Shown one piece after another: positions 1,167 through 26,398 of a stretch of 26,398 nt of DNA. The stretch is from a virus (Duplodnaviria > Heunggongvirae > Uroviricota > Caudoviricetes), in the IMG/VR virus record IMGVR_UViG_2534681993_000012; one strand, 5' to 3'. Position 1 is the first letter of the stretch. Each line of letters begins with the position of its first letter. The position numbers were made by a program, and so were the translations under genes. The notes beneath the pieces are model-generated. The model ran no database searches, was not told the origin of the DNA, and saw nothing but the letters and a program-made list of their open reading frames with translations.

Positions 1167-2632
1167 CAGATACAGCGTTATCTCCTGAAGAGCAGTTGAT
1201 CGAGGATATTGCAGGGTTCACTCACGATCCGCTTGGCTATGCCCTCTATGCGTTCCCGTGGGGGGAAGAGGGGACTGAACTGGCACATGCCACCGGCCCA
1301 CGTCAGTGGCAAGCCGATGCGTTCCGAGAGATACGTGATCACCTGCAGAATCCAGAGACGCGCTATCAGCCGCTTATGCTGGCACGCGCTTCGGGGCACG
1401 GTATTGGTAAATCAGCATTCATCTCAATGCTGATCAACTGGGGCATGTCCACTTGCGAGGATTGTAAGGTCGTGGTGACCGCCAACACCGACAACCAGCT
1501 ACGAACGAAGACCTGGCCGGAAATTATCAAGTGGTCGAACCTTGCTATCACGAAAGACTGGTTTACCTGTACCGCTACCGCGATGTACAGCAATGACCCT
1601 GGGCACGACAAGCGGTGGCGGGCTGACGCAATACCCTGGTCTGAGCACAACACTGAGGCATTCGCCGGACTACACAACGAGCGCAAACGCATCATCGTGG
1701 TATTCGATGAAGCGTCGAACATTGCGGATCTGGTGTGGGAAGTTGCTGAGGGTGCGCTTACGGACGAAGACACTGAGATTATCTGGGTGGCGTTCGGAAA
1801 CCCTACACGTAATACCGGGCGTTTTCGCGAATGTTTCCGCAAATACAAACACCGCTGGAAAACTGCGCAGATTGACAGCCGGACGGTGGAAGGTACTAAC
1901 AAACAGCAGTTGCAGAAATGGGTTGATGACTACGGGGAAGACAGCGACTTCGTTAAAATCCGTGTGCGCGGCATATTCCCTGATGCATCTGAATTGCAGT
2001 TTATCCCTACCGGTCTTACTGATGAGGCAATGAAACGGGTGGTAACCGCTGCGCAGGTGGCACATGCTCCGGTGATAATCGGTGTTGACCCGGCATATTC
2101 AGGCGTTGATGACGCGGTGATATACCTGCGGCAGGGGTTGCATAGTAAGGTGCTATGGACTGGCAACAAGACCACTGACGATCTGATTATGGCGAAGCGT
2201 ATCGCTGACTTTGAAGACCAGTACCAGGCTGACGCAGTGTTCATCGACTTCGGTTACGGAACTGGTCTGAAGTCAATCGGTGACGGCTGGGGTCGTACAT
2301 GGCAACTTGTTCCGTTCGGTGGCGCGTCTACTGACCCGCAGATGCTCAACAAGCGTGGGGAGATGTTCAACTCATGTAAGACATGGCTGAGGCTGGGCGG
2401 GATGCTGGATGACCAGGAAACAGCGGACGATCTGTCTGCGGCAGAGTACAAAGTTCGCGTGGACGGTAAAATCGTTATCGAACCGAAGGAAGATATCAAA
2501 GAACGACTTGGGCGTTCACCTGGTAAAGGCGATGCGCTACTGCTGACGTTTGCGTTCCCGGTAGCCAAGAAAACTAATGACCCACGGCAGCAGCAGGGCA
2601 GGGCTATAACAGACTATGACCCATTTGAATGA
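1163..2632 (+). CDS. terminase large subunit (ATPase plus nuclease)
   Basis: 489 aa; Walker A-like ARASGHGIGKS; C-terminal acidic motifs (VIIGVDPAYSGVDDAVIY) consistent with an RNase H-like nuclease domain; position after the small subunit. Confidence 0.9.
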   Translation: MTDTALSPEEQLIEDIAGFTHDPLGYALYAFPWGEEGTELAHATGPRQWQADAFREIRDHLQNPETRYQPLMLARASGHGIGKSAFISMLINWGMSTCEDCKVVVTANTDNQLRTKTWPEIIKWSNLAITKDWFTCTATAMYSNDPGHDKRWRADAIPWSEHNTEAFAGLHNERKRIIVVFDEASNIADLVWEVAEGALTDEDTEIIWVAFGNPTRNTGRFRECFRKYKHRWKTAQIDSRTVEGTNKQQLQKWVDDYGEDSDFVKIRVRGIFPDASELQFIPTGLTDEAMKRVVTAAQVAHAPVIIGVDPAYSGVDDAVIYLRQGLHSKVLWTGNKTTDDLIMAKRIADFEDQYQADAVFIDFGYGTGLKSIGDGWGRTWQLVPFGGASTDPQMLNKRGEMFNSCKTWLRLGGMLDDQETADDLSAAEYKVRVDGKIVIEPKEDIKERLGRSPGKGDALLLTFAFPVAKKTNDPRQQQGRAITDYDPFE

Positions 2633-2635
2633 TTT

Positions 2636-3460
2636 TTACTTTTGTGTTTTTGATTTTCTTTGATAGGTGGAATTTAAATCACCATTTATATTTACTAGAG
2701 GATTATTCAATAATGTACTGATTTCTGGATTGTTAATTCCAGTAACGCCAAATTTCTTTACGGACTCATTAAGGTCTTGTAATGATTTTAGACCTACAAA
2801 CCCATTAGCAATTGTATTATTTGTTGCCAAAGGAATGTTTTCCTTATAGGACTCATATTCGTTTTTTAAATTTTTGTGAGCTTTTTCTAGATTTTCTAGT
2901 TTAGATGTTGTTTCATCAATAACCTTAGATAATTCTAAAATACGAGCTTGTGCTGCGCGCAGTTCTGTCTCCCTCTCTTTCAATTCAGATGTGAGTTGTC
3001 CCATTCTGTCTTTTGAAAGAATTATTTCCTCTTTCATGTCTTGAATGTTTTTTTCAGCGCCTGTTTTTACTTTTTCGTAAGTAATGTCTTTTTTAGCCAG
3101 CAATCTCTGTAGCCGTGTTTCACGTTGTATTTTTCTTGCCTTCCGGTGGTTTTCGATTGAGTCATTATTATCAAGAGGTTTTGCTTGCCATACGTTAATG
3201 ATATTGTTTACCCATGGTAATAGGCAGCAGATAGTAATTACAGATAAGCATGGATAAAACATAACAGTTTTCCATGTGCTGTTATCTGAGATGTATGAAA
3301 TTTTATCTATTATATTTGATTTGCTAAAAAACAGATAAAGAAGTGATTTCCAGTTGAAGGCGCACCAGGACATAACAAAAGCACCAAGCACAGGGTTTTT
3401 GGCTCTATGCACGGCAGTGTTTGCAGTAGATAAAAACAGCTCTTTGAACGATTCAAACAT
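2636..3460 (-). CDS. accessory (moron) membrane protein: two predicted N-terminal TM helices, long coiled-coil, C-terminal globular domain; function unknown (candidate superinfection-exclusion or abortive-infection protein)
   Basis: ORF track 2636..3556; preferred start ATG at 3460 (MFESFKELF...) with AAGGT Shine-Dalgarno, downstream of a TATAAT -10. Hydrophobic segments NPVLGAFVMSWCAFNWKSLLYLFF and VMFYPCLSVITICCLLPWVNNIINVW, then a heptad-rich KE/RL region. Visibly AT-rich relative to the flanking terminase and portal genes. Confidence 0.65.
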   Translation of the reverse strand: MFESFKELFLSTANTAVHRAKNPVLGAFVMSWCAFNWKSLLYLFFSKSNIIDKISYISDNSTWKTVMFYPCLSVITICCLLPWVNNIINVWQAKPLDNNDSIENHRKARKIQRETRLQRLLAKKDITYEKVKTGAEKNIQDMKEEIILSKDRMGQLTSELKERETELRAAQARILELSKVIDETTSKLENLEKAHKNLKNEYESYKENIPLATNNTIANGFVGLKSLQDLNESVKKFGVTGINNPEISTLLNNPLVNINGDLNSTYQRKSKTQK

Positions 3461-3485
3461 ACTAATTACCTTAAAGTTTTTCATG

Positions 3486-3514
3486 ATTATACCTTTAAGG
3501 TAATTTGTGGTCAT
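3486..3514 (-). promoter_or_regulatory. sigma70-like promoter with embedded operator dyad for the membrane-protein gene
   Basis: Minus strand: -35 ATGACC (3514-3509), 17-bp spacer, -10 TATAAT (3491-3486). The dyad aTACCT-TTA-AGGTAA (3489-3503) lies in the spacer and overlaps the -10. Confidence 0.5.
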
Positions 3515-3526
3515 CAGGCAAAAAAA

Positions 3527-3545
3527 TACCCGGCGAACCGGGCGA
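3527..3545 (-). terminator. intrinsic terminator (minus strand only)
   Basis: Minus strand reads CCCGG-TTCG-CCGGG then TATTTTTTT. No U-run on the + strand, so late-operon read-through is not blocked. Confidence 0.5.
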
Positions 3546-3620
3546 ACTGGAAGCAATGAGTTATGCCTTCCGTGGCTGTACTGGTTTACAGCATGAAGTC
3601 ATCGCAATGGCGTCCTGCTG

Positions 3621-3663
3621 TAAAAAGGGCGGTGATAGTCCTTCAAGGGAAACTATCACCGCC
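3621..3663 (-). terminator. intrinsic terminator downstream of the tRNA (minus strand only)
   Basis: 12-bp stem GGCGGTGATAGT/ACTATCACCGCC with 12-nt loop, followed on the minus strand by CTTTTTA. Confidence 0.55.
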
Positions 3664-3706
3664 AAGCACCTGGAACTTCTGGCATCACGGTCCTTAGGCG
3701 TGATTC

Positions 3707-3783
3707 TGGCGTGGCATGCAGGATTCGAACCTGCGACCAACCGCTTAGAAGGCGGTTGCTCTGTCCAACTGAGCTAATGCCAC
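3707..3783 (-). tRNA. tRNA-Arg (anticodon UCU, decodes AGA); phage-borne
   Basis: Minus strand folds as a 77-nt cloverleaf: acceptor GTGGCAT/ATGCCAC, D-arm GCTC...GAGC, anticodon stem ACCGC/GCGGT with loop CTTCTAA (U33-UCU-A37), T-arm GCAGG-TTCGAAT-CCTGC, discriminator G and encoded CCA. Resembles but differs from host argU as I recall it. Confidence 0.85.
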
Positions 3784-19564: not shown

Positions 19565-20005
19565 CTATTCACAATTAGTGATGGCGTATGTATCAAATAT
19601 ATTGCCATCACTAAATACATACCTATACTCAATCTCTCCGCCAAGGTGAATAAATGCTTTCATTTGCCTGTTGGAGCAAATGCTCGATTTTGAATAATTT
19701 CGCATTACACTCTTTAATTTATTTTCTAAGGTTACATCACCATTATAAACTTTTGATAAATAGCTGTTGTTGTAATTAAGATGCGCTACAACTAAAAGTT
19801 TGTTTAGTATTGCATTTATTGAAACAATAGACATATTATCATTCAATTTTATGGGAAGTGACTTTCCTGCTTCTGATGCAATTTTGTTTGCATGTGCACA
19901 CATATCCTCATTTATTAAATTCTTAAAACATATGTCGTTTGCAAACGAAAAAATTGGTAGGATAAACAAAACGGTAGCTGTAATAGCGTGCATCGGCTTA
20001 ATCAT
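19565..20005 (-). CDS. secreted or periplasmic moron protein (146 aa) with Sec signal peptide; function unknown
   Basis: N-terminus MIKPMHAITATVLFILPIFSFA then NDI (signal peptide); four Cys; very AT-rich. Its stop (CTA, 19565-19567) directly abuts the stop of the 1129-aa gene. Confidence 0.55.
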   Translation of the reverse strand: MIKPMHAITATVLFILPIFSFANDICFKNLINEDMCAHANKIASEAGKSLPIKLNDNMSIVSINAILNKLLVVAHLNYNNSYLSKVYNGDVTLENKLKSVMRNYSKSSICSNRQMKAFIHLGGEIEYRYVFSDGNIFDTYAITNCE

Positions 20006-20205
20006 TAGGTGACCTTTATGTTCAAGAAGATGATCAACAGATTAATCGGTGGTAAGGAGGTTAGCAATAAAATTCAACCTCTTATCTTTAAGGATAACTT
20101 TTCAGCTTTTGAGTATGCGTGTAAGTATCTTGACACAAGCCTTTCAGCCAATAAACCAATGCCAGCCATCATCATACCTGGTCCAAGTGGGGAACAGCCA
20201 GTTTT

Positions 20206-20210
20206 GCTAG
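20206..20210. repeat. IS2 target-site duplication (GCTAG), left copy
   Basis: The same 5-mer directly flanks both IS2 ends. Confidence 0.8.
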
Positions 20211-20221
20211 TGGATTTGCCC

Positions 20222-21127
20222 CTATATTTCCAGACACCTGTTATCACTTAACCCATTACTGGCTTGCTGCCGTAGATATTCCCGTGGCGAGCGATAACCC
20301 AGTGCACTATGCGGATGCCATTCGTTATAATGCTCGAACGCCTCTGCAAGGTTCTTTGCTGCCGTTAACCCGTCTGGTTTGGGCATGACACTGATGTAGT
20401 CACGCTTTATCGTTTTCACGAAGCTCTCTGCTATGCCGTTACTCTCCGGACTCCGCACCGCCGTGCTCTTCGGTTCAAGCCCCAACATCCGGGCAAACTG
20501 CCGTGTTTCATTAGCCCGGTAGCATGAACCATTATCCGTCAGCCACTCTACTGGAGACGCCGGAAGCTCGTTGCCGAAGCGGCGTTCCACCGCTCCCAGC
20601 ATGACGTCCTGTACTGTTTCACTGTTGAAGCCGCCCGTAGTGACCGCCCAGTGCAGTGCCTCACGGTCACAGCAGTCCAGCGCGAACGTGACTCGCAGTT
20701 TTTCTCCGTTATCACAGCGGAACTCGAACCCGTCAGAGCACCATCGCTGATTACTTTCTTTCACAGCCACTCTGCCTGTATGTGCCCGTTTCGATGGCGG
20801 TACAGCAGGTTTTCGCTCAAGCAACAGCGCATTCTGGCGCATGATCCGGTAAACACGTTTGGCATTGATCGCAGGCATACCATCAAGTTCTGCCTGTCTG
20901 CGAAGCAGCGCCCATACCCGACGATAACCATACGTGGGCAGCTCTCCGATAACATGGTGTATACGGAGAAGCACATCCGTATCATCAGTGTGACGACTGC
21001 GGCGGCCATCCATCCAGTCATCGGTTCGTCTGAGAATGACGTGCAACTGCGCACGCGACACCCGGAGACAACGGCTGACTAAGCTTACTCCCCATCCCCG
21101 GGCAATAAGGGCGCGTGCGCTATCCAC
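20222..21127 (-). CDS. insD: IS2 transposase OrfB (InsD)
   Basis: 301-aa translation [23 protein letters not shown]... recognised as IS2 InsD. Overlaps insC in the -1 frame with slippery CAAAAAAG at 21127-21134 (programmed frameshift typical of the IS3 family). Confidence 0.9.
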
Positions 21128-21450
21128 TTTTTTGCCCGTCCATATTCAACGGCTTCTTTGAGGAGTTCATTTTCCATCGTTTTCTTGCCGAGCAGGCGCT
21201 GGAGTTCTTTAATCTGCTTCATGGCGGCAGCAAGTTCAGAGGCAGGAACAACCTGTTCTCCGGCGGCGACAGCAGTAAGACTTCCTTCCTGGTATTGCTT
21301 ACGCCAGAGAAATAACTGGCTGGCTGCTACACCATGTTGCCGGGCAACGAGGGAGACCGTCATCCCTGGTTCAAAGCTCTGCTGAACAATTGCGATCTTT
21401 TCCTGTGTGGTACGCCGTCTGCGTTTCTCCGGTCCTAAGACATCAATCAT
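21085..21450 (-). CDS. insC: IS2 OrfA (InsC), HTH protein
   Basis: [25 protein letters not shown]...; ATG 21450 follows GGAGA. The ORF-track extension to 21495 lacks a ribosome-binding site. Confidence 0.85.
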
Positions 21451-21541
21451 CTGCTCTCCAATGACTAGTCTAAAAACTAGTATTAAGACTATCACTTAAA
21501 TAAGTGATACTGGTTGTCTGGAGATTCAGGGGGCCAGTCTA

Positions 21542-21546
21542 GCTAG
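21542..21546. repeat. IS2 target-site duplication (GCTAG), right copy
   Basis: See left copy. Confidence 0.8.
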
Positions 21547-21800
21547 ATTCTGGAAGACAAAGGGCAATGCTGAAGGTGTGCTCAGCTGATGGTGGATTTT
21601 TTGTTATTGCCGATTCATCTTACAGCAAAGGACCAAAGCTGAGGATTGGTGATCTTGTTGCTTGGTTGCCTGTGAGTTATGCCGAAGAATTAACGGATAA
21701 AATAGAAGATCCTCGCTCCGCTATGGTTGGCTTTATATTGGGAACCATTCATCCTGAACTAACATCTACTGGCTGGAAGGGTAAAGAAAGATTTCGCAAG

Positions 21801-21816
21801 TAGCGTGACATGTCAC
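21801..21816. repeat. 16-bp motif TAGCGTGACATGTCAC (copy 2 of 2)
   Basis: Exact repeat of 444-459; here its first 3 nt are the stop codon of the IS2-disrupted gene and it is followed at once by a terminator. Confidence 0.7.
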
Positions 21817-21841
21817 AGGCCGCTTTCGCGGCCTTGTTTTT
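21817..21841 (+). terminator. intrinsic terminator
   Basis: AGGCCGC-TTTC-GCGGCCT followed by TGTTTTT. Confidence 0.6.
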
Positions 21842-22001
21842 AACGAATGCCACCGCCGCCCGGGCGGGAATCCGCAGAACGCCCACCGCAGCGGGAGCCG
21901 TCAGCGGCAGTATCGCTGTCGTGCTGACAACGACCGGCAAAGGCCTGAGTTGAAGCTACCAGAGACAACAAAACGAACAGTGCAGCAAATGCTTTTTTCA
22001 T
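21840..22001 (-). CDS. small secreted peptide (53-aa precursor; about 31-aa mature, Gly/Arg/Asp/Ser-rich with 2 Cys)
   Basis: ORF track 21840..22073; the internal start MKKAFAALFVLLSLVASTQAFA gives a canonical Sec signal peptide with AFA cleavage motif. GC-rich, unlike its neighbours. Confidence 0.45.
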   Translation of the reverse strand: MKKAFAALFVLLSLVASTQAFAGRCQHDSDTAADGSRCGGRSADSRPGGGGIR

Positions 22002-22014
22002 TGTGACATTTCCA

Positions 22015-22042
22015 TCTATAAGCCACCTCAATGTGGCGTCAA
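22015..22042 (-). promoter_or_regulatory. candidate sigma70 promoter of the small-peptide gene
   Basis: Minus strand: -35 TTGACG (22042-22037), 16-bp spacer, -10 TATAGA (22020-22015). Confidence 0.35.
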
Positions 22043-22082
22043 TGAGTGTAGCACTGACTTTTGTTTCGTCCATAAAAAACTA

Positions 22083-22595
22083 CTATGCAGGCTTTTTGGA
22101 TTTGTACGAATAATCCCACGGATAAACATTTCTACTAAGTGGGGCTGTATTCGTTCGTTCATGAAATAATTTTGTGAAATTCAATACGGAATCCATCCAA
22201 ACTTTTGCGTTAGCTTTGGTGTGTGCGGGCGGGTCCCAATAAGCTAGTAAGGCTGCATCTCTTATTTCATTGACTGCATATATGAGATATGCGTTACTGG
22301 TTGGTTTTGGCCTGTAATTTCCTTGTTCATCAATCAATCCATATGACCACTCATCCCAACACTGTTCAGTACATGAGTATGAATATGATGCATATTCACC
22401 AATATTGACATGAACCTTTCTGAGATGGAAGCCTAATACTTCGTCTGGTCTTTCAAAAAGAGTATCTTTTCCCAGATCAGGATGATGACCATGACGCCAG
22501 TGTTGTTTAAAAGCATCTTTTAGCGAAATCAGAAAGTCATCAGTTTTAAACTCACCAGTAGGTATAACCTTCCCGCTATACTCACTCAAAAACAT
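22083..22595 (-). CDS. uncharacterised protein (170 aa), distal gene of a two-gene operon; His/Cys-rich segments (HWRHGHHP, CTEQCWDEW)
   Basis: ATG 22595 follows GAGGAA; the start overlaps the last 14 nt of the upstream gene (translational coupling). No family recognised by eye. Confidence 0.6.
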   Translation of the reverse strand: MFLSEYSGKVIPTGEFKTDDFLISLKDAFKQHWRHGHHPDLGKDTLFERPDEVLGFHLRKVHVNIGEYASYSYSCTEQCWDEWSYGLIDEQGNYRPKPTSNAYLIYAVNEIRDAALLAYWDPPAHTKANAKVWMDSVLNFTKLFHERTNTAPLSRNVYPWDYSYKSKKPA

Positions 22596-22908
22596 CGAAT
22601 TCCTCTTCCTTCATATGCGTTTCTAATGAGTTAAGCTGGCGGAAAGATATCTCTTTTGATTCTGCAGATGAGAGCTTTTTTATCCGCTTTATATTCTTTG
22701 TGATAGGAATAGACATTGTATGCACATCAGCGGATGCTCTTGGCTTTGTGCTGATAAAAATATGGCGCAATGCCGCATTTTCACTATTGAACGAGCCAAT
22801 AGCTGATTTACGTGCTACAACCTTACCAGTAAAAATACGACTCTTGCTACGCTTTGCATGAGTTCCGCTTCTTACCGGACCTCTCATCACGAATCCAAGT
22901 TTTGTCAT
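22582..22908 (-). CDS. uncharacterised basic protein (108 aa), proximal gene of the two-gene operon
   Basis: ATG 22908 follows GGAGA (7-nt spacer); Lys/Arg-rich N-terminal half, acidic C-terminus; operator dyad 43-57 bp upstream. Confidence 0.6.
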   Translation of the reverse strand: MTKLGFVMRGPVRSGTHAKRSKSRIFTGKVVARKSAIGSFNSENAALRHIFISTKPRASADVHTMSIPITKNIKRIKKLSSAESKEISFRQLNSLETHMKEEEFDVFE

Positions 22909-22950
22909 CTTTAATCTCCGGTAAGTTACAGGTATAAAATAAAAACAGGT

Positions 22951-22965
22951 TTACCTTTAAGGTAA
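22951..22965. promoter_or_regulatory. operator-like dyad TTACCT-TTA-AGGTAA (perfect arms) upstream of the 108/170 operon
   Basis: Perfect 6-3-6 inverted repeat in the 5' region of the minus-strand operon. Confidence 0.6.
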
Positions 22966-23031
22966 TATTACGCGAATCTACATCACATCGCCAATGATTA
23001 TTTTAAAGGCACATCCCTGTGCCGCCGCCCG

Positions 23032-23742
23032 TCAGAAGAACCCAGCCTTGTCGTTGATGTACTCCGCGTGGGTCTGGATATCACGCAGGCATTTGCTCAC
23101 ACCGACGATGTAGCAGAACATGGTGGTCAGCTCCGCCGCCGCGCCCGATACGTCGTGCCCGTCTTCCTGTAACTGGTTCAGCAGATTCATCAGCAGTGAG
23201 TGCTCCGTCAGGCCGAGAACACCAGACGGCGAATGAATCAGGCTACGGTAGCCGGGCTTCAGTGGGGCACTGTAGGTTTTGTTCTCTATCTTCATTGCCT
23301 GCATTACTGCTGACGCCGTGGCGTTGGCTACCTGGTCGGCAACCATCTTTATGCGTTCTTCCTGCGGTAGCGAGTTTTTAATGTAACTTCCGGTGCGGCG
23401 GATCTGAGGAAGAACCTCACCTGTAACCCATTTACGAAAGCGGTAGGGGATAGTGCCTGGTGTCACCGCATCGCGGCAGCGGAGGATCAGTGTGTAGAGG
23501 CCTGACTCGGAGATGATGTTGATCTCTTTTACTCGGCTGTCAAAAATTGCACGATGTTCATGCCCTATGTTGAACATAGACCTTTCATCATCATCCAGTT
23601 TTTCAAGTGCTTGGGTGACGTTTTGGATACGCAGCGCACTACAAACGTCTTGGGCTACAAACCATGGTTGGCCATCGATAATGATGGAACGGATAGGGTT
23701 AACAGATTCAAATTTGAAGATGGCAGTTTGAGCATTAGCCAT
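23032..23742 (-). CDS. phage antirepressor, BRO-N family (N-terminal Bro-N DNA-binding domain plus C-terminal Ant-like domain)
   Basis: ORF track 23032..23757 (GTG); ATG 23742 follows GGAG. N-terminus FKFESVNPIRSIIIDGQPWFVAQDVCSALRIQN is a typical Bro-N signature; the C-terminal 80 aa are homologous to the ORF at 24058-24315. Confidence 0.85.
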   Translation of the reverse strand: MANAQTAIFKFESVNPIRSIIIDGQPWFVAQDVCSALRIQNVTQALEKLDDDERSMFNIGHEHRAIFDSRVKEINIISESGLYTLILRCRDAVTPGTIPYRFRKWVTGEVLPQIRRTGSYIKNSLPQEERIKMVADQVANATASAVMQAMKIENKTYSAPLKPGYRSLIHSPSGVLGLTEHSLLMNLLNQLQEDGHDVSGAAAELTTMFCYIVGVSKCLRDIQTHAEYINDKAGFF

Positions 23743-23770
23743 GGTGGTTATCTCCACTTAGTGATTTTAA

Positions 23771-24510: not shown

Positions 24511-26398
24511 ATGACGGTCTCAACCGAAGTTGACCACAACGAATACACCGGTAACGGTGTTACAACGACATTCCCTTATACCTTCAGGATTTTTAAGAAG
24601 TCTGATCTGGTAGTCCAGGTTGTAGACCTGAACGATAACATCACTGTTCTGACGCTAGATACTGACTACACAGTAACCGGCGCAGGTGGGTATGTAGGTG
24701 GTAATGTAATACTGGCAACAGCTCTTGCTAATGGTTACCAGATTTCCATATCACGTGAATTGCCGGTTACGCAGGAAACGGATCTCCGTAACCAGGGTAA
24801 GTTCTTTGCTGAGGTGCATGAGGATGCGCTTGATAAGTTGACAATGTTGATTCAGCAGGTTCGTAGTTGGTTTAGCCTGGCGCTACGTAAGCCGTCATTT
24901 GCTGCTAACTATTACGACGCAATGGACAACTATATTCGTAATCTTCGTGCCCCATCCAGGCCGAAAGACGCAGCAACGAAAGATTATGTTGATATTCTTT
25001 CTGGTGCCAGCCTAAGCAGAAGCTTGAGAGTACCTGAATCGTTTATAAATGAGTTACCTGATGCGGATGGGAGAAAGAATAAAACACTGAGTTTTGATAA
25101 TTCTGGATCACCGCTTCTTCTTGATCCTGAAAGTAGTGGGTTATGGGGATATTCCCTTATTGATTCGTTTCAGGATGGTGCTTCAATAACAACTAGATTT
25201 CAGGCACTTCACTGGAAACGTCCTGATGGAAATGGCGAGTACTACCGTTGGGATGGATCTTTACCAAAAGATGTTCCTGAGAATTCAACCCCTGAATCAA
25301 CAGGTGGGGTTTCCCTTGGTGCCTGGGTATCTGTAGGGGATGCATCGTTGCGGAGCGACCTGATTAGTCAAGAGACAGATAAAGGCTCCTCAATAGTTAC
25401 ATATACCCCTAAATTTAATGATGCCGTCTCGATGTCGGTATATGAAAAACTTTCTGTAGATTTGGTGACACTTTCAGACTACGGATTTAAAGTTGGCAAC
25501 ACCGGTGCTCAGAACAAAGCGGCGTTTCAGAAGGCTATTGATGATGCTACGTTGCCAACTGAGATTGTTATACCAGAGGGGGTGTTCATTGTTGACCCTG
25601 GTATTACGATTAAGAATACTGTCACCATGATACGAGGTGCTGGCGCATATCAGTCCAGAATTTTCTCTACGGGTACAGCGGCACCGATAATCACGCAACA
25701 AGATGGAGTAATTACGTTCTGCGAGTTCAGGGACTTTGGTCTTGACGGAAATGGCTACGCAGCTAACGGCATCAGTCTTACTGAAGCCAACCACATTAAA
25801 ATAGAAAATATTGACGTGGTTAATACTAATAACAACGCAATATTAGTTAACGGTTACTCCATTGACATCATTGGGTGCCGATTGTTTCAAAACACCGGTA
25901 ACGGTATTAATGTTGGTGGCCACTGCAATAATATTAATATAATCAACAACCGTATCTATGGTAACGGAGCCGGTGGAGTTTTACTTACGCCAGCTTACGC
26001 TGAGGGCGGTATGAGCGTCAGAGTTAATGGCAACGATATAGAGCAAAATAAGTTCTACGGACTTTTGGCTTACGGGGTTAAAGGCCTTAACCTTGATGCT
26101 AACTATTGGGAACGCAACGGTGAGATTGGTTACCAGTATAGTGTACCTGAGTCTATTACAGTACGTGCGGATATCCACCTTATCGCGAACAATTTTACAT
26201 TAATTCCTGACCTTTCAAAAATTAATGATACCGTATCTATTCGCGGGAATCAGCAGACCGCGATTGGCTACGCCAGCGCGCTACCTAACCAAGACGGATT
26301 TATTTTCACGAACTATGCGAAAAACCTGACGATTGAAAATAATCAGTTATTAGACGCATCGAAAGTGAATAATTTATTAGCAATGTACCACAATAATA
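24511..26398 (+). CDS. tailspike protein (3'-truncated by window end): conserved N-terminal particle-binding domain plus right-handed beta-helix receptor-binding or depolymerase domain
   Basis: ATG 24511 follows GGAG; open to the window end (about 629 codons). N-terminus MTVSTEVDHNEYTGNGVTTTFPYTF...; C-terminal part has parallel beta-helix repeats (IIGCRLFQNTGNGINVGGHCNNINIINNRIYGNGAGGV). AT-richer than the virion operon. Confidence 0.85.
   Translation, partial: MTVSTEVDHNEYTGNGVTTTFPYTFRIFKKSDLVVQVVDLNDNITVLTLDTDYTVTGAGGYVGGNVILATALANGYQISISRELPVTQETDLRNQGKFFAEVHEDALDKLTMLIQQVRSWFSLALRKPSFAANYYDAMDNYIRNLRAPSRPKDAATKDYVDILSGASLSRSLRVPESFINELPDADGRKNKTLSFDNSGSPLLLDPESSGLWGYSLIDSFQDGASITTRFQALHWKRPDGNGEYYRWDGSLPKDVPENSTPESTGGVSLGAWVSVGDASLRSDLISQETDKGSSIVTYTPKFNDAVSMSVYEKLSVDLVTLSDYGFKVGNTGAQNKAAFQKAIDDATLPTEIVIPEGVFIVDPGITIKNTVTMIRGAGAYQSRIFSTGTAAPIITQQDGVITFCEFRDFGLDGNGYAANGISLTEANHIKIENIDVVNTNNNAILVNGYSIDIIGCRLFQNTGNGINVGGHCNNINIINNRIYGNGAGGVLLTPAYAEGGMSVRVNGNDIEQNKFYGLLAYGVKGLNLDANYWERNGEIGYQYSVPESITVRADIHLIANNFTLIPDLSKINDTVSIRGNQQTAIGYASALPNQDGFIFTNYAKNLTIENNQLLDASKVNNLLAMYHNN

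Follow-up and report, generated by a model that had tools for sequence, protein, structure and literature searches.

A complete IS2 splits a 149-residue accessory gene of an epsilon15/phiV10-like Escherichia coli prophage in an apparently recent insertion

In this study, we analysed a 26,398-nt stretch of viral DNA (IMG/VR record IMGVR_UViG_2534681993_000012; referred to as the window at its full length), which spans the late region of a short-tailed, epsilon15/phiV10-like prophage of E. coli. We conclude, at a probability of about 96%, that a complete copy of the insertion sequence (IS) IS2 has recently inserted into a 149-amino-acid (aa) accessory gene of this prophage and split it, apparently in the source strain only. 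The element is flanked by a 5-bp target-site duplication, and the decisive evidence for the insertion is the empty site, reconstructed by removal of the element, which matches complete genomes at 100%. The parts of the element, with the inverted repeats at its right end (IRR) and left end (IRL), and the two fragments of the gene are arranged as follows:

20018-20210, plus strand: 5′ part of the interrupted gene (codons 1-64), which reads into IS2 and meets a stop at 20249-20251
20206-20210, no strand: left copy of the target-site duplication, GCTAG (read directly and by script; a single copy stands in the empty sites of relatives)
20211-21541, minus strand: complete IS2, IS3 family, 1331 bp (IS2A of K-12 MG1655 aligns to it with no gap)
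20211-20251, minus strand: IRR, 41 bp, the donor end (from the sequence; lengths and roles of the inverted repeats from PMC3299598)
20222-21127, minus strand: insD/orfB, an open frame of 301 codons for the catalytic part of the transposase (comparison with K-12; Pfam)
21133-21127, minus strand: A6G slippery site, where OrfA and OrfB are fused by a programmed −1 frameshift (AAAAAAG at IS position 409)
21085-21450, minus strand: insC/orfA, 121 aa, the same as K-12 InsC (alignment)
21500-21541, minus strand: IRL, 42 bp, the recipient end beside a weak inward promoter (from the sequence; PMC3299598)
21542-21546, no strand: right copy of the target-site duplication, GCTAG (read directly and by script)
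21547-21803, plus strand: 3′ part of the interrupted gene (codons 65-149 and the stop); its longest open reading frame (ORF) is 78 aa from the ATG at 21567

The element at 20211-21541 is a complete IS2, in which every defining feature that can be tested on sequence was found. Its first bases, TGGATTTGCCCC, are those of IRR and its last bases, GGGGGCCAGTCTA, are the reverse complement of IRL, while longer reads of the ends give TGGATTTGCCCCTATATTTCCAGACA at the start and TAGACTGGCCCCCTGAATCTCCAGACA for the reverse-complemented end. The terminal inverted repeats are imperfect, as the definition of IS2 asks (IRR of 41 bp, TGGATTTGCCCC...; IRL of 42 bp, TAGACTGGCCCC...). Since the right end lies at 20211 and the left end at 21541, the transposase genes are on the minus strand. 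Precomputed Pfam matches on the transposase gene comprise PF00665 rve, PF13276 HTH_21, PF13683 rve_3 and PF01527 HTH_Tnp_1, the first of which supplies the DDE (rve) integrase-type catalytic domain of IS2, and the 5-bp target duplication is present as GCTAG on both sides and singly in the empty sites. Alignment to IS2A (insC1/insD1) of K-12 MG1655 required no gaps over the equal length and left 31 mismatches (97.7% identity); the two copies agree in the outermost 31 bases of IRL and the outermost 26 of IRR, with mismatches at IS positions 32, 42, 43 and 1305. InsC carries no substitution and InsD carries eight, and the A6G site sits in the overlap of insC and insD, the K-12 annotation likewise letting insD1 overlap the end of insC1. 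The window copy therefore resembles IS2A in its 1331-bp length, terminal sequences, InsC, A6G site and 5-bp duplication, but differs from it in 31 bases and eight InsD residues, being a variant resident in this strain group and not the K-12 copy. The full-length 1331-bp element and the perfect direct repeat at 20206-20210 and 21542-21546, both recognised in the first-pass annotation of this DNA, were thus recovered; neither reading frame of the element is broken, and its frameshift site is preserved. Many identical copies in relatives and differing insertion sites in sister prophages (see below) point indirectly to transposition, and the window IS2 is probably still active.

When 20018-20210 and 21547-21803 were joined by script, 450 nt were obtained, corresponding to 149 codons and a stop, and the insertion point fell in codons 63-65 of the gene (…Q P V L L D S G…). 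In the interrupted state, the ORF through the left junction encodes 77 aa, composed of 64 native residues and 13 encoded by the IS. A 5-bp match at two fixed positions would arise by chance in about 1/1024 cases. For the empty-site query, 19565-20210 and 21547-22100 were joined to 1200 bp and searched in 5426 complete E. coli genomes, 14 of which carry at least 80% of the query, all in one uninterrupted piece. Three of them, F2_407_2_2, DEC9B and 7_33_46A, are 100% identical to the query along its full 1200 bp, with no gap or break, and in each PGAP annotates an intact 450-nt gene for the hypothetical protein WP_000473936.1. The first-pass annotation had proposed that removal of IS2 and one repeat copy restores the 149-aa ORF, and had named a lack of intact homologues in IS-free relatives as the finding that would speak against this; the restored ORF is identical to the intact annotated gene of IS-free relatives, which was found at 100% in these three genomes. 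The exact reconstructed protein is moreover encoded on at least 1000 public contigs, and nine IMG/VR prophage loci hold the gene uninterrupted. The three strains, of bovine (F2_407_2_2, 7_33_46A) and human (DEC9B) origin, are the closest complete-genome relatives at this locus.

In our reading, IS2, which moves by copy-out, paste-in via a minicircle, transposed into codons 63-65, the staggered cut of the target giving rise to the usual 5-bp duplication, here GCTAG. The products would be the 77-aa fusion peptide and a 3′ fragment devoid of a promoter. The consequence for the protein was considered on a structure model. A first model from 11 close homologues reached a pLDDT of 54 and was discarded, so that we refer to the AlphaFold model of the 99%-identical P0001, built on a 78-sequence alignment with a pLDDT of 92.6. 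It predicts a helix at 27-37 and strands at 48-53, 69-75, 82-88, 101-109, 124-137 and 140-146, which places barrel strands on both sides of residue 64; in the alignment, conservation within the family likewise extends to either side of the break point.

An IS2 end may also act on the genes around it. The junction of the IS2 minicircle forms the promoter Pjunc, with the −35 element in IRR, the −10 element in IRL and an obligatory spacer of 17 bp (PMC3299598). At a new site, the outward −35 of IRR can give rise to fusion promoters (PMC9330008), an example being the ampC up-mutation (Jaurin and Normark 1983, as reviewed in PMC9330008). Three further features of the window bear on this:

19565-20005, minus strand: divergent 146-aa gene with a signal-peptide-like N-terminus, four conserved cysteines and a match to phrog_8772 (ORF and profile match)
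20232-20227, minus strand: putative outward −35, TGGAAA, placed by the 17-bp spacing rule for Pjunc
21817-21834, plus strand: terminator-like hairpin just past the split gene, between it and the convergent minus-strand accessory genes

According to the first-pass annotation, the element provides an outward-facing end next to the downstream accessory genes. As a functional point this found no support: the genes at 21840-23757, which lie on the minus strand, are read in the direction of IS2, while the IRR that bears the −35 faces left from 20211, first onto the 5′ fragment and then onto the 146-aa gene, whose minus-strand start at 20005 is 205 bp away. The 146-aa gene shares the minus strand with the transposase genes, an orientation that would fit read-through from the right end of IS2, or a hybrid promoter, that raises expression of the 146-aa gene, all the more as fusion promoters via the IRR −35 are documented, ampC among them. 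Such a regulatory effect, or an advantage from loss of the 149-aa gene, would be compatible with a recent insertion; we regard either as improbable. At the required 17-bp spacing, TGGAAA meets TAGCAA, which matches the −10 consensus in 3/6 positions and lacks the conserved final T, and the hexamers at 16-bp and 18-bp spacing match it worse. A hybrid promoter was consequently rejected on sequence. The arrangement is like the ampC fusion promoter in that an IRR with an outward −35 abuts DNA upstream of a co-oriented gene, and unlike it in that a usable −10 at the right spacing is missing and the gene starts 205 bp off, so activation is not predicted. Owing to the poor −10 at 17 bp, and to the downstream genes facing IS2 with a hairpin in between, there is no support in the sequence for a regulatory gain, and any effect would concern the 146-aa gene and not the downstream genes. 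We therefore infer that the neighbouring genes are unaffected by the insertion. As for a selected loss, the 149-aa gene has been damaged independently elsewhere, by a 1-nt frameshift in its 5′ half in L025 (GCA_018183755.1, about 2788-3237) and in a 92-aa truncated allele (P0168) on 6 contigs; set against at least 1000 contigs with the intact gene, these few damaged alleles resemble ordinary prophage decay.

The occupied site appears to be confined to a single strain. It is absent, as the interval 19900-21900, from all 5426 complete E. coli genomes searched, and a 37-base probe of the left junction found no match in species-representative genomes or in IMG/VR. The junction was seen only in the source contig AJVW01000537.1 (assembly GCA_000264015.1), a draft contig to which the window corresponds in its entirety and which was traced through the 78-aa product of the 3′ fragment, and in one independent read assembly, that of run SRR495243, traced through the 77-aa fusion product, which repeats the left junction with the 146-aa gene, the 77-aa fusion ORF and the IS2 transposase. 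IS2 copies 100% identical to that of the window occur in F2_407_2_2, DEC9B, 7_33_46A and others, at 13-16 places per genome in these three nearest relatives. The prophage of F2_407_2_2 (NZ_CP074756.1) is 99.5-99.9% identical to the window and holds an IS2 of its own (L002, 11678-13008), which differs by 1 nt and occupies another site, namely the 5′ end of the tailspike gene, flanked by a CCCTT duplication at window-equivalent positions 24573-24577. There, the start of the tailspike is cut off, the tail protein is a pseudogene in the PGAP annotation and the 149-aa gene is intact; the DEC9B prophage carries neither insertion. The two events are alike in the near-identical prophage, the near-identical IS2 and the 5-bp duplication, but differ in the target (CCCTT versus GCTAG). 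They are best described as independent, recent hops of the IS2 resident in this lineage.

Given 100% identity of the flanks to empty sites and of the IS to sibling copies, and an occupied site missing from the large collections searched, the insertion is recent and probably strain-specific, which agrees with the age proposed in the first-pass annotation. An old insertion that has become fixed in the lineage is, in our judgement, highly improbable. It could be argued from the distance of 31 bases to the K-12 IS2A, by which the element is not the laboratory reference copy; however, this variant is the lineage's resident one, with 100% identical copies in close relatives, and fixation is hard to reconcile with flanks that have not diverged from the empty sites, with an undamaged target duplication and undamaged reading frames of the transposase, and with an occupied junction that was missing from every large collection scanned.

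Nothing contradicts the insertion as such. Three points qualify its interpretation as recent and inactivating and should be kept in mind. Firstly, the loss of function is deduced from the predicted fold: since the break would part the N-terminal helix and the first strand from the remaining β-barrel, the allele is almost certainly null. Secondly, recent is a relative term, based on zero divergence and absence elsewhere rather than on a dated tree. Thirdly, the sequence comes from a draft contig, in which joins made by the assembler classically arise at IS copies. The resulting alternative, that a whole draft contig was joined through a collapsed repeat, as may happen with 13-16 near-identical IS2 copies that often confuse short-read assemblers, and that the prophage gene is uninterrupted in reality, is the least credible of those considered, because a false join would link unrelated flanks whereas here they are the halves of one gene that is contiguous in 14 complete genomes, because the same 5-bp duplication stands at each junction and because the assembly of SRR495243 independently repeats the left one.

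The protein interrupted by IS2 was described as unrecognised in the first-pass annotation, and in the databases searched it remained so. It has no match in Pfam or NCBIfam, and none among the PADLOC models at E ≤ 0.1, by which it does not count as a known anti-phage defence protein. It aligns end to end with the function-unknown family phrog_9944 (residues 1-149 to profile positions 1-149 of 149, E = 1.4e-92), a likeness that itself carries no functional information. While a word-indexed search retrieved 13 close clusters only, an exhaustive profile search gave 308 representatives at E ≤ 0.001, 171 of them at E ≤ 1e-10. A profile search of PDB sequences yielded a chance-level match only, and a scan of species-representative genomes found no relatives. 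The wider family of 308 representatives is undescribed in Pfam, NCBIfam and PADLOC, is carried on mobile elements and has an OB-like fold according to the model.

The family domain comprises about 130 aa and occurs in several arrangements: alone, as a tandem pair (P0014), behind transmembrane segments (P0016, P0018, P0020, P0026, P0031, P0053), behind zinc ribbons (P0035) and fused to a Zeta_toxin/AAA_33 kinase domain, on one side of it or the other (P0040, P0044). In the neighbourhoods of distant members we observed integrases, resolvases, a HEPN gene, a gene with a T7_gp14 domain and methylases. These look-ups revealed no constant partner gene, and a two-gene system can therefore not be proposed. 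Among the 50,697 phage records of INPHARED, the sole relative of the split protein is found in one Acinetobacter prophage-like contig. In the Acinetobacter phage MD-2021a (CAKLQA020000003.1, L009, 4896-5387), a homologue of 29% identity lies directly downstream of a CI-type repressor gene, with which it is co-oriented, and opposite cro. The slot directly after a CI-type repressor gene is typical for genes expressed in the lysogen.

The 149-aa gene always comes immediately behind the gene of the last large virion protein, with which it shares the strand, as seen in Cedecea davisae and two metagenome-derived contigs. The phages EC.W1-9, TL-2011b and phiV10, to which the window has partial DNA matches, match the region at the DNA level but not the 149-aa gene itself. 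Since these related phages and nearly all INPHARED records are without a relative, the gene appears to be dispensable for related phages.

Its divergent neighbour, the 146-aa gene, had been called secreted in the first-pass annotation, consistent with the signal-peptide-like N-terminal segment and the four conserved cysteines of its product. The start codons of the two genes (20005, minus; 20018, plus) are just 12 bp apart, so that the promoter of either gene has to be located within its neighbour or at a greater distance; promoter-like sites on the plus strand were noted at 19602-19629 and 19753-19782, antisense within the 146-aa gene. The stop of this gene (19565) directly abuts that of the gene for the 1129-aa virion protein (19564). 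In Cedecea, the 146-aa neighbour retains 30% identity and all four cysteines. An obligate pair of the 146-aa and 149-aa genes was considered and rejected, as relatives of the latter in L006 and L007 are without the former.

The order of genes in the window is terminase, portal, capsid, three very large internal virion proteins, the accessory region and the tailspike from 24511; the prophage of DEC9B adjoins yfgI. Within the accessory region, the gene of a small membrane-anchored protein (about 21840-22073, minus strand; phrog_3117, phrog_14503) and the hairpin form, at 21815-22079, the most widely shared piece. Most of the 536 E. coli records matched by the empty-site query owe their match to this piece alone, which also recurs in TL-2011b, phiV10, EC.W1-9 and other phages. 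Further along, overlapping genes of 108 aa and 170 aa occupy 22083-22908 on the minus strand. The 170-aa product is a YafO-family toxin according to PGAP in relatives and scores 19.7 bits against Pfam YafO_toxin, under the gathering cut-off of 25, while its 108-aa partner matches only phrog_5933; the pair may be a toxin-antitoxin module of the prophage. In the terminase-portal interval, the window differs from the DEC9B prophage over 2622-3783. In place of the Gp49-family gene of DEC9B, it has a 306-aa ORF (2636-3556, minus strand, TTG start) without a match in Pfam, and beside this ORF a tRNA-Arg(TCT) at 3707-3783 on the minus strand.

The event itself is a textbook IS2 insertion, which would not surprise a specialist, and as insertions of IS2 into E. 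coli prophage genes are routine, it is of little importance on its own. It does, however, show IS2 hopping within this prophage lineage, and the junction sequence, found only in data of the source strain, can be used as a strain-specific marker. Moreover, a conserved accessory gene would be available as a naturally occurring null allele, which together with the near-isogenic intact alleles of the IS-free sisters makes up a pair of knock-out and wild type. From the unnamed domain of predicted OB-like fold, its varied architectures and the Acinetobacter homologue behind a CI-type repressor gene, we put forward, as a speculation with the odds clearly against it, that the interrupted gene founds an undescribed single-gene function of prophages and integrated elements, e.g. 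superinfection exclusion or another function of the lysogen. If this were true, the IS2 allele and its IS-free sisters would provide a ready-made natural knock-out pair for that function.
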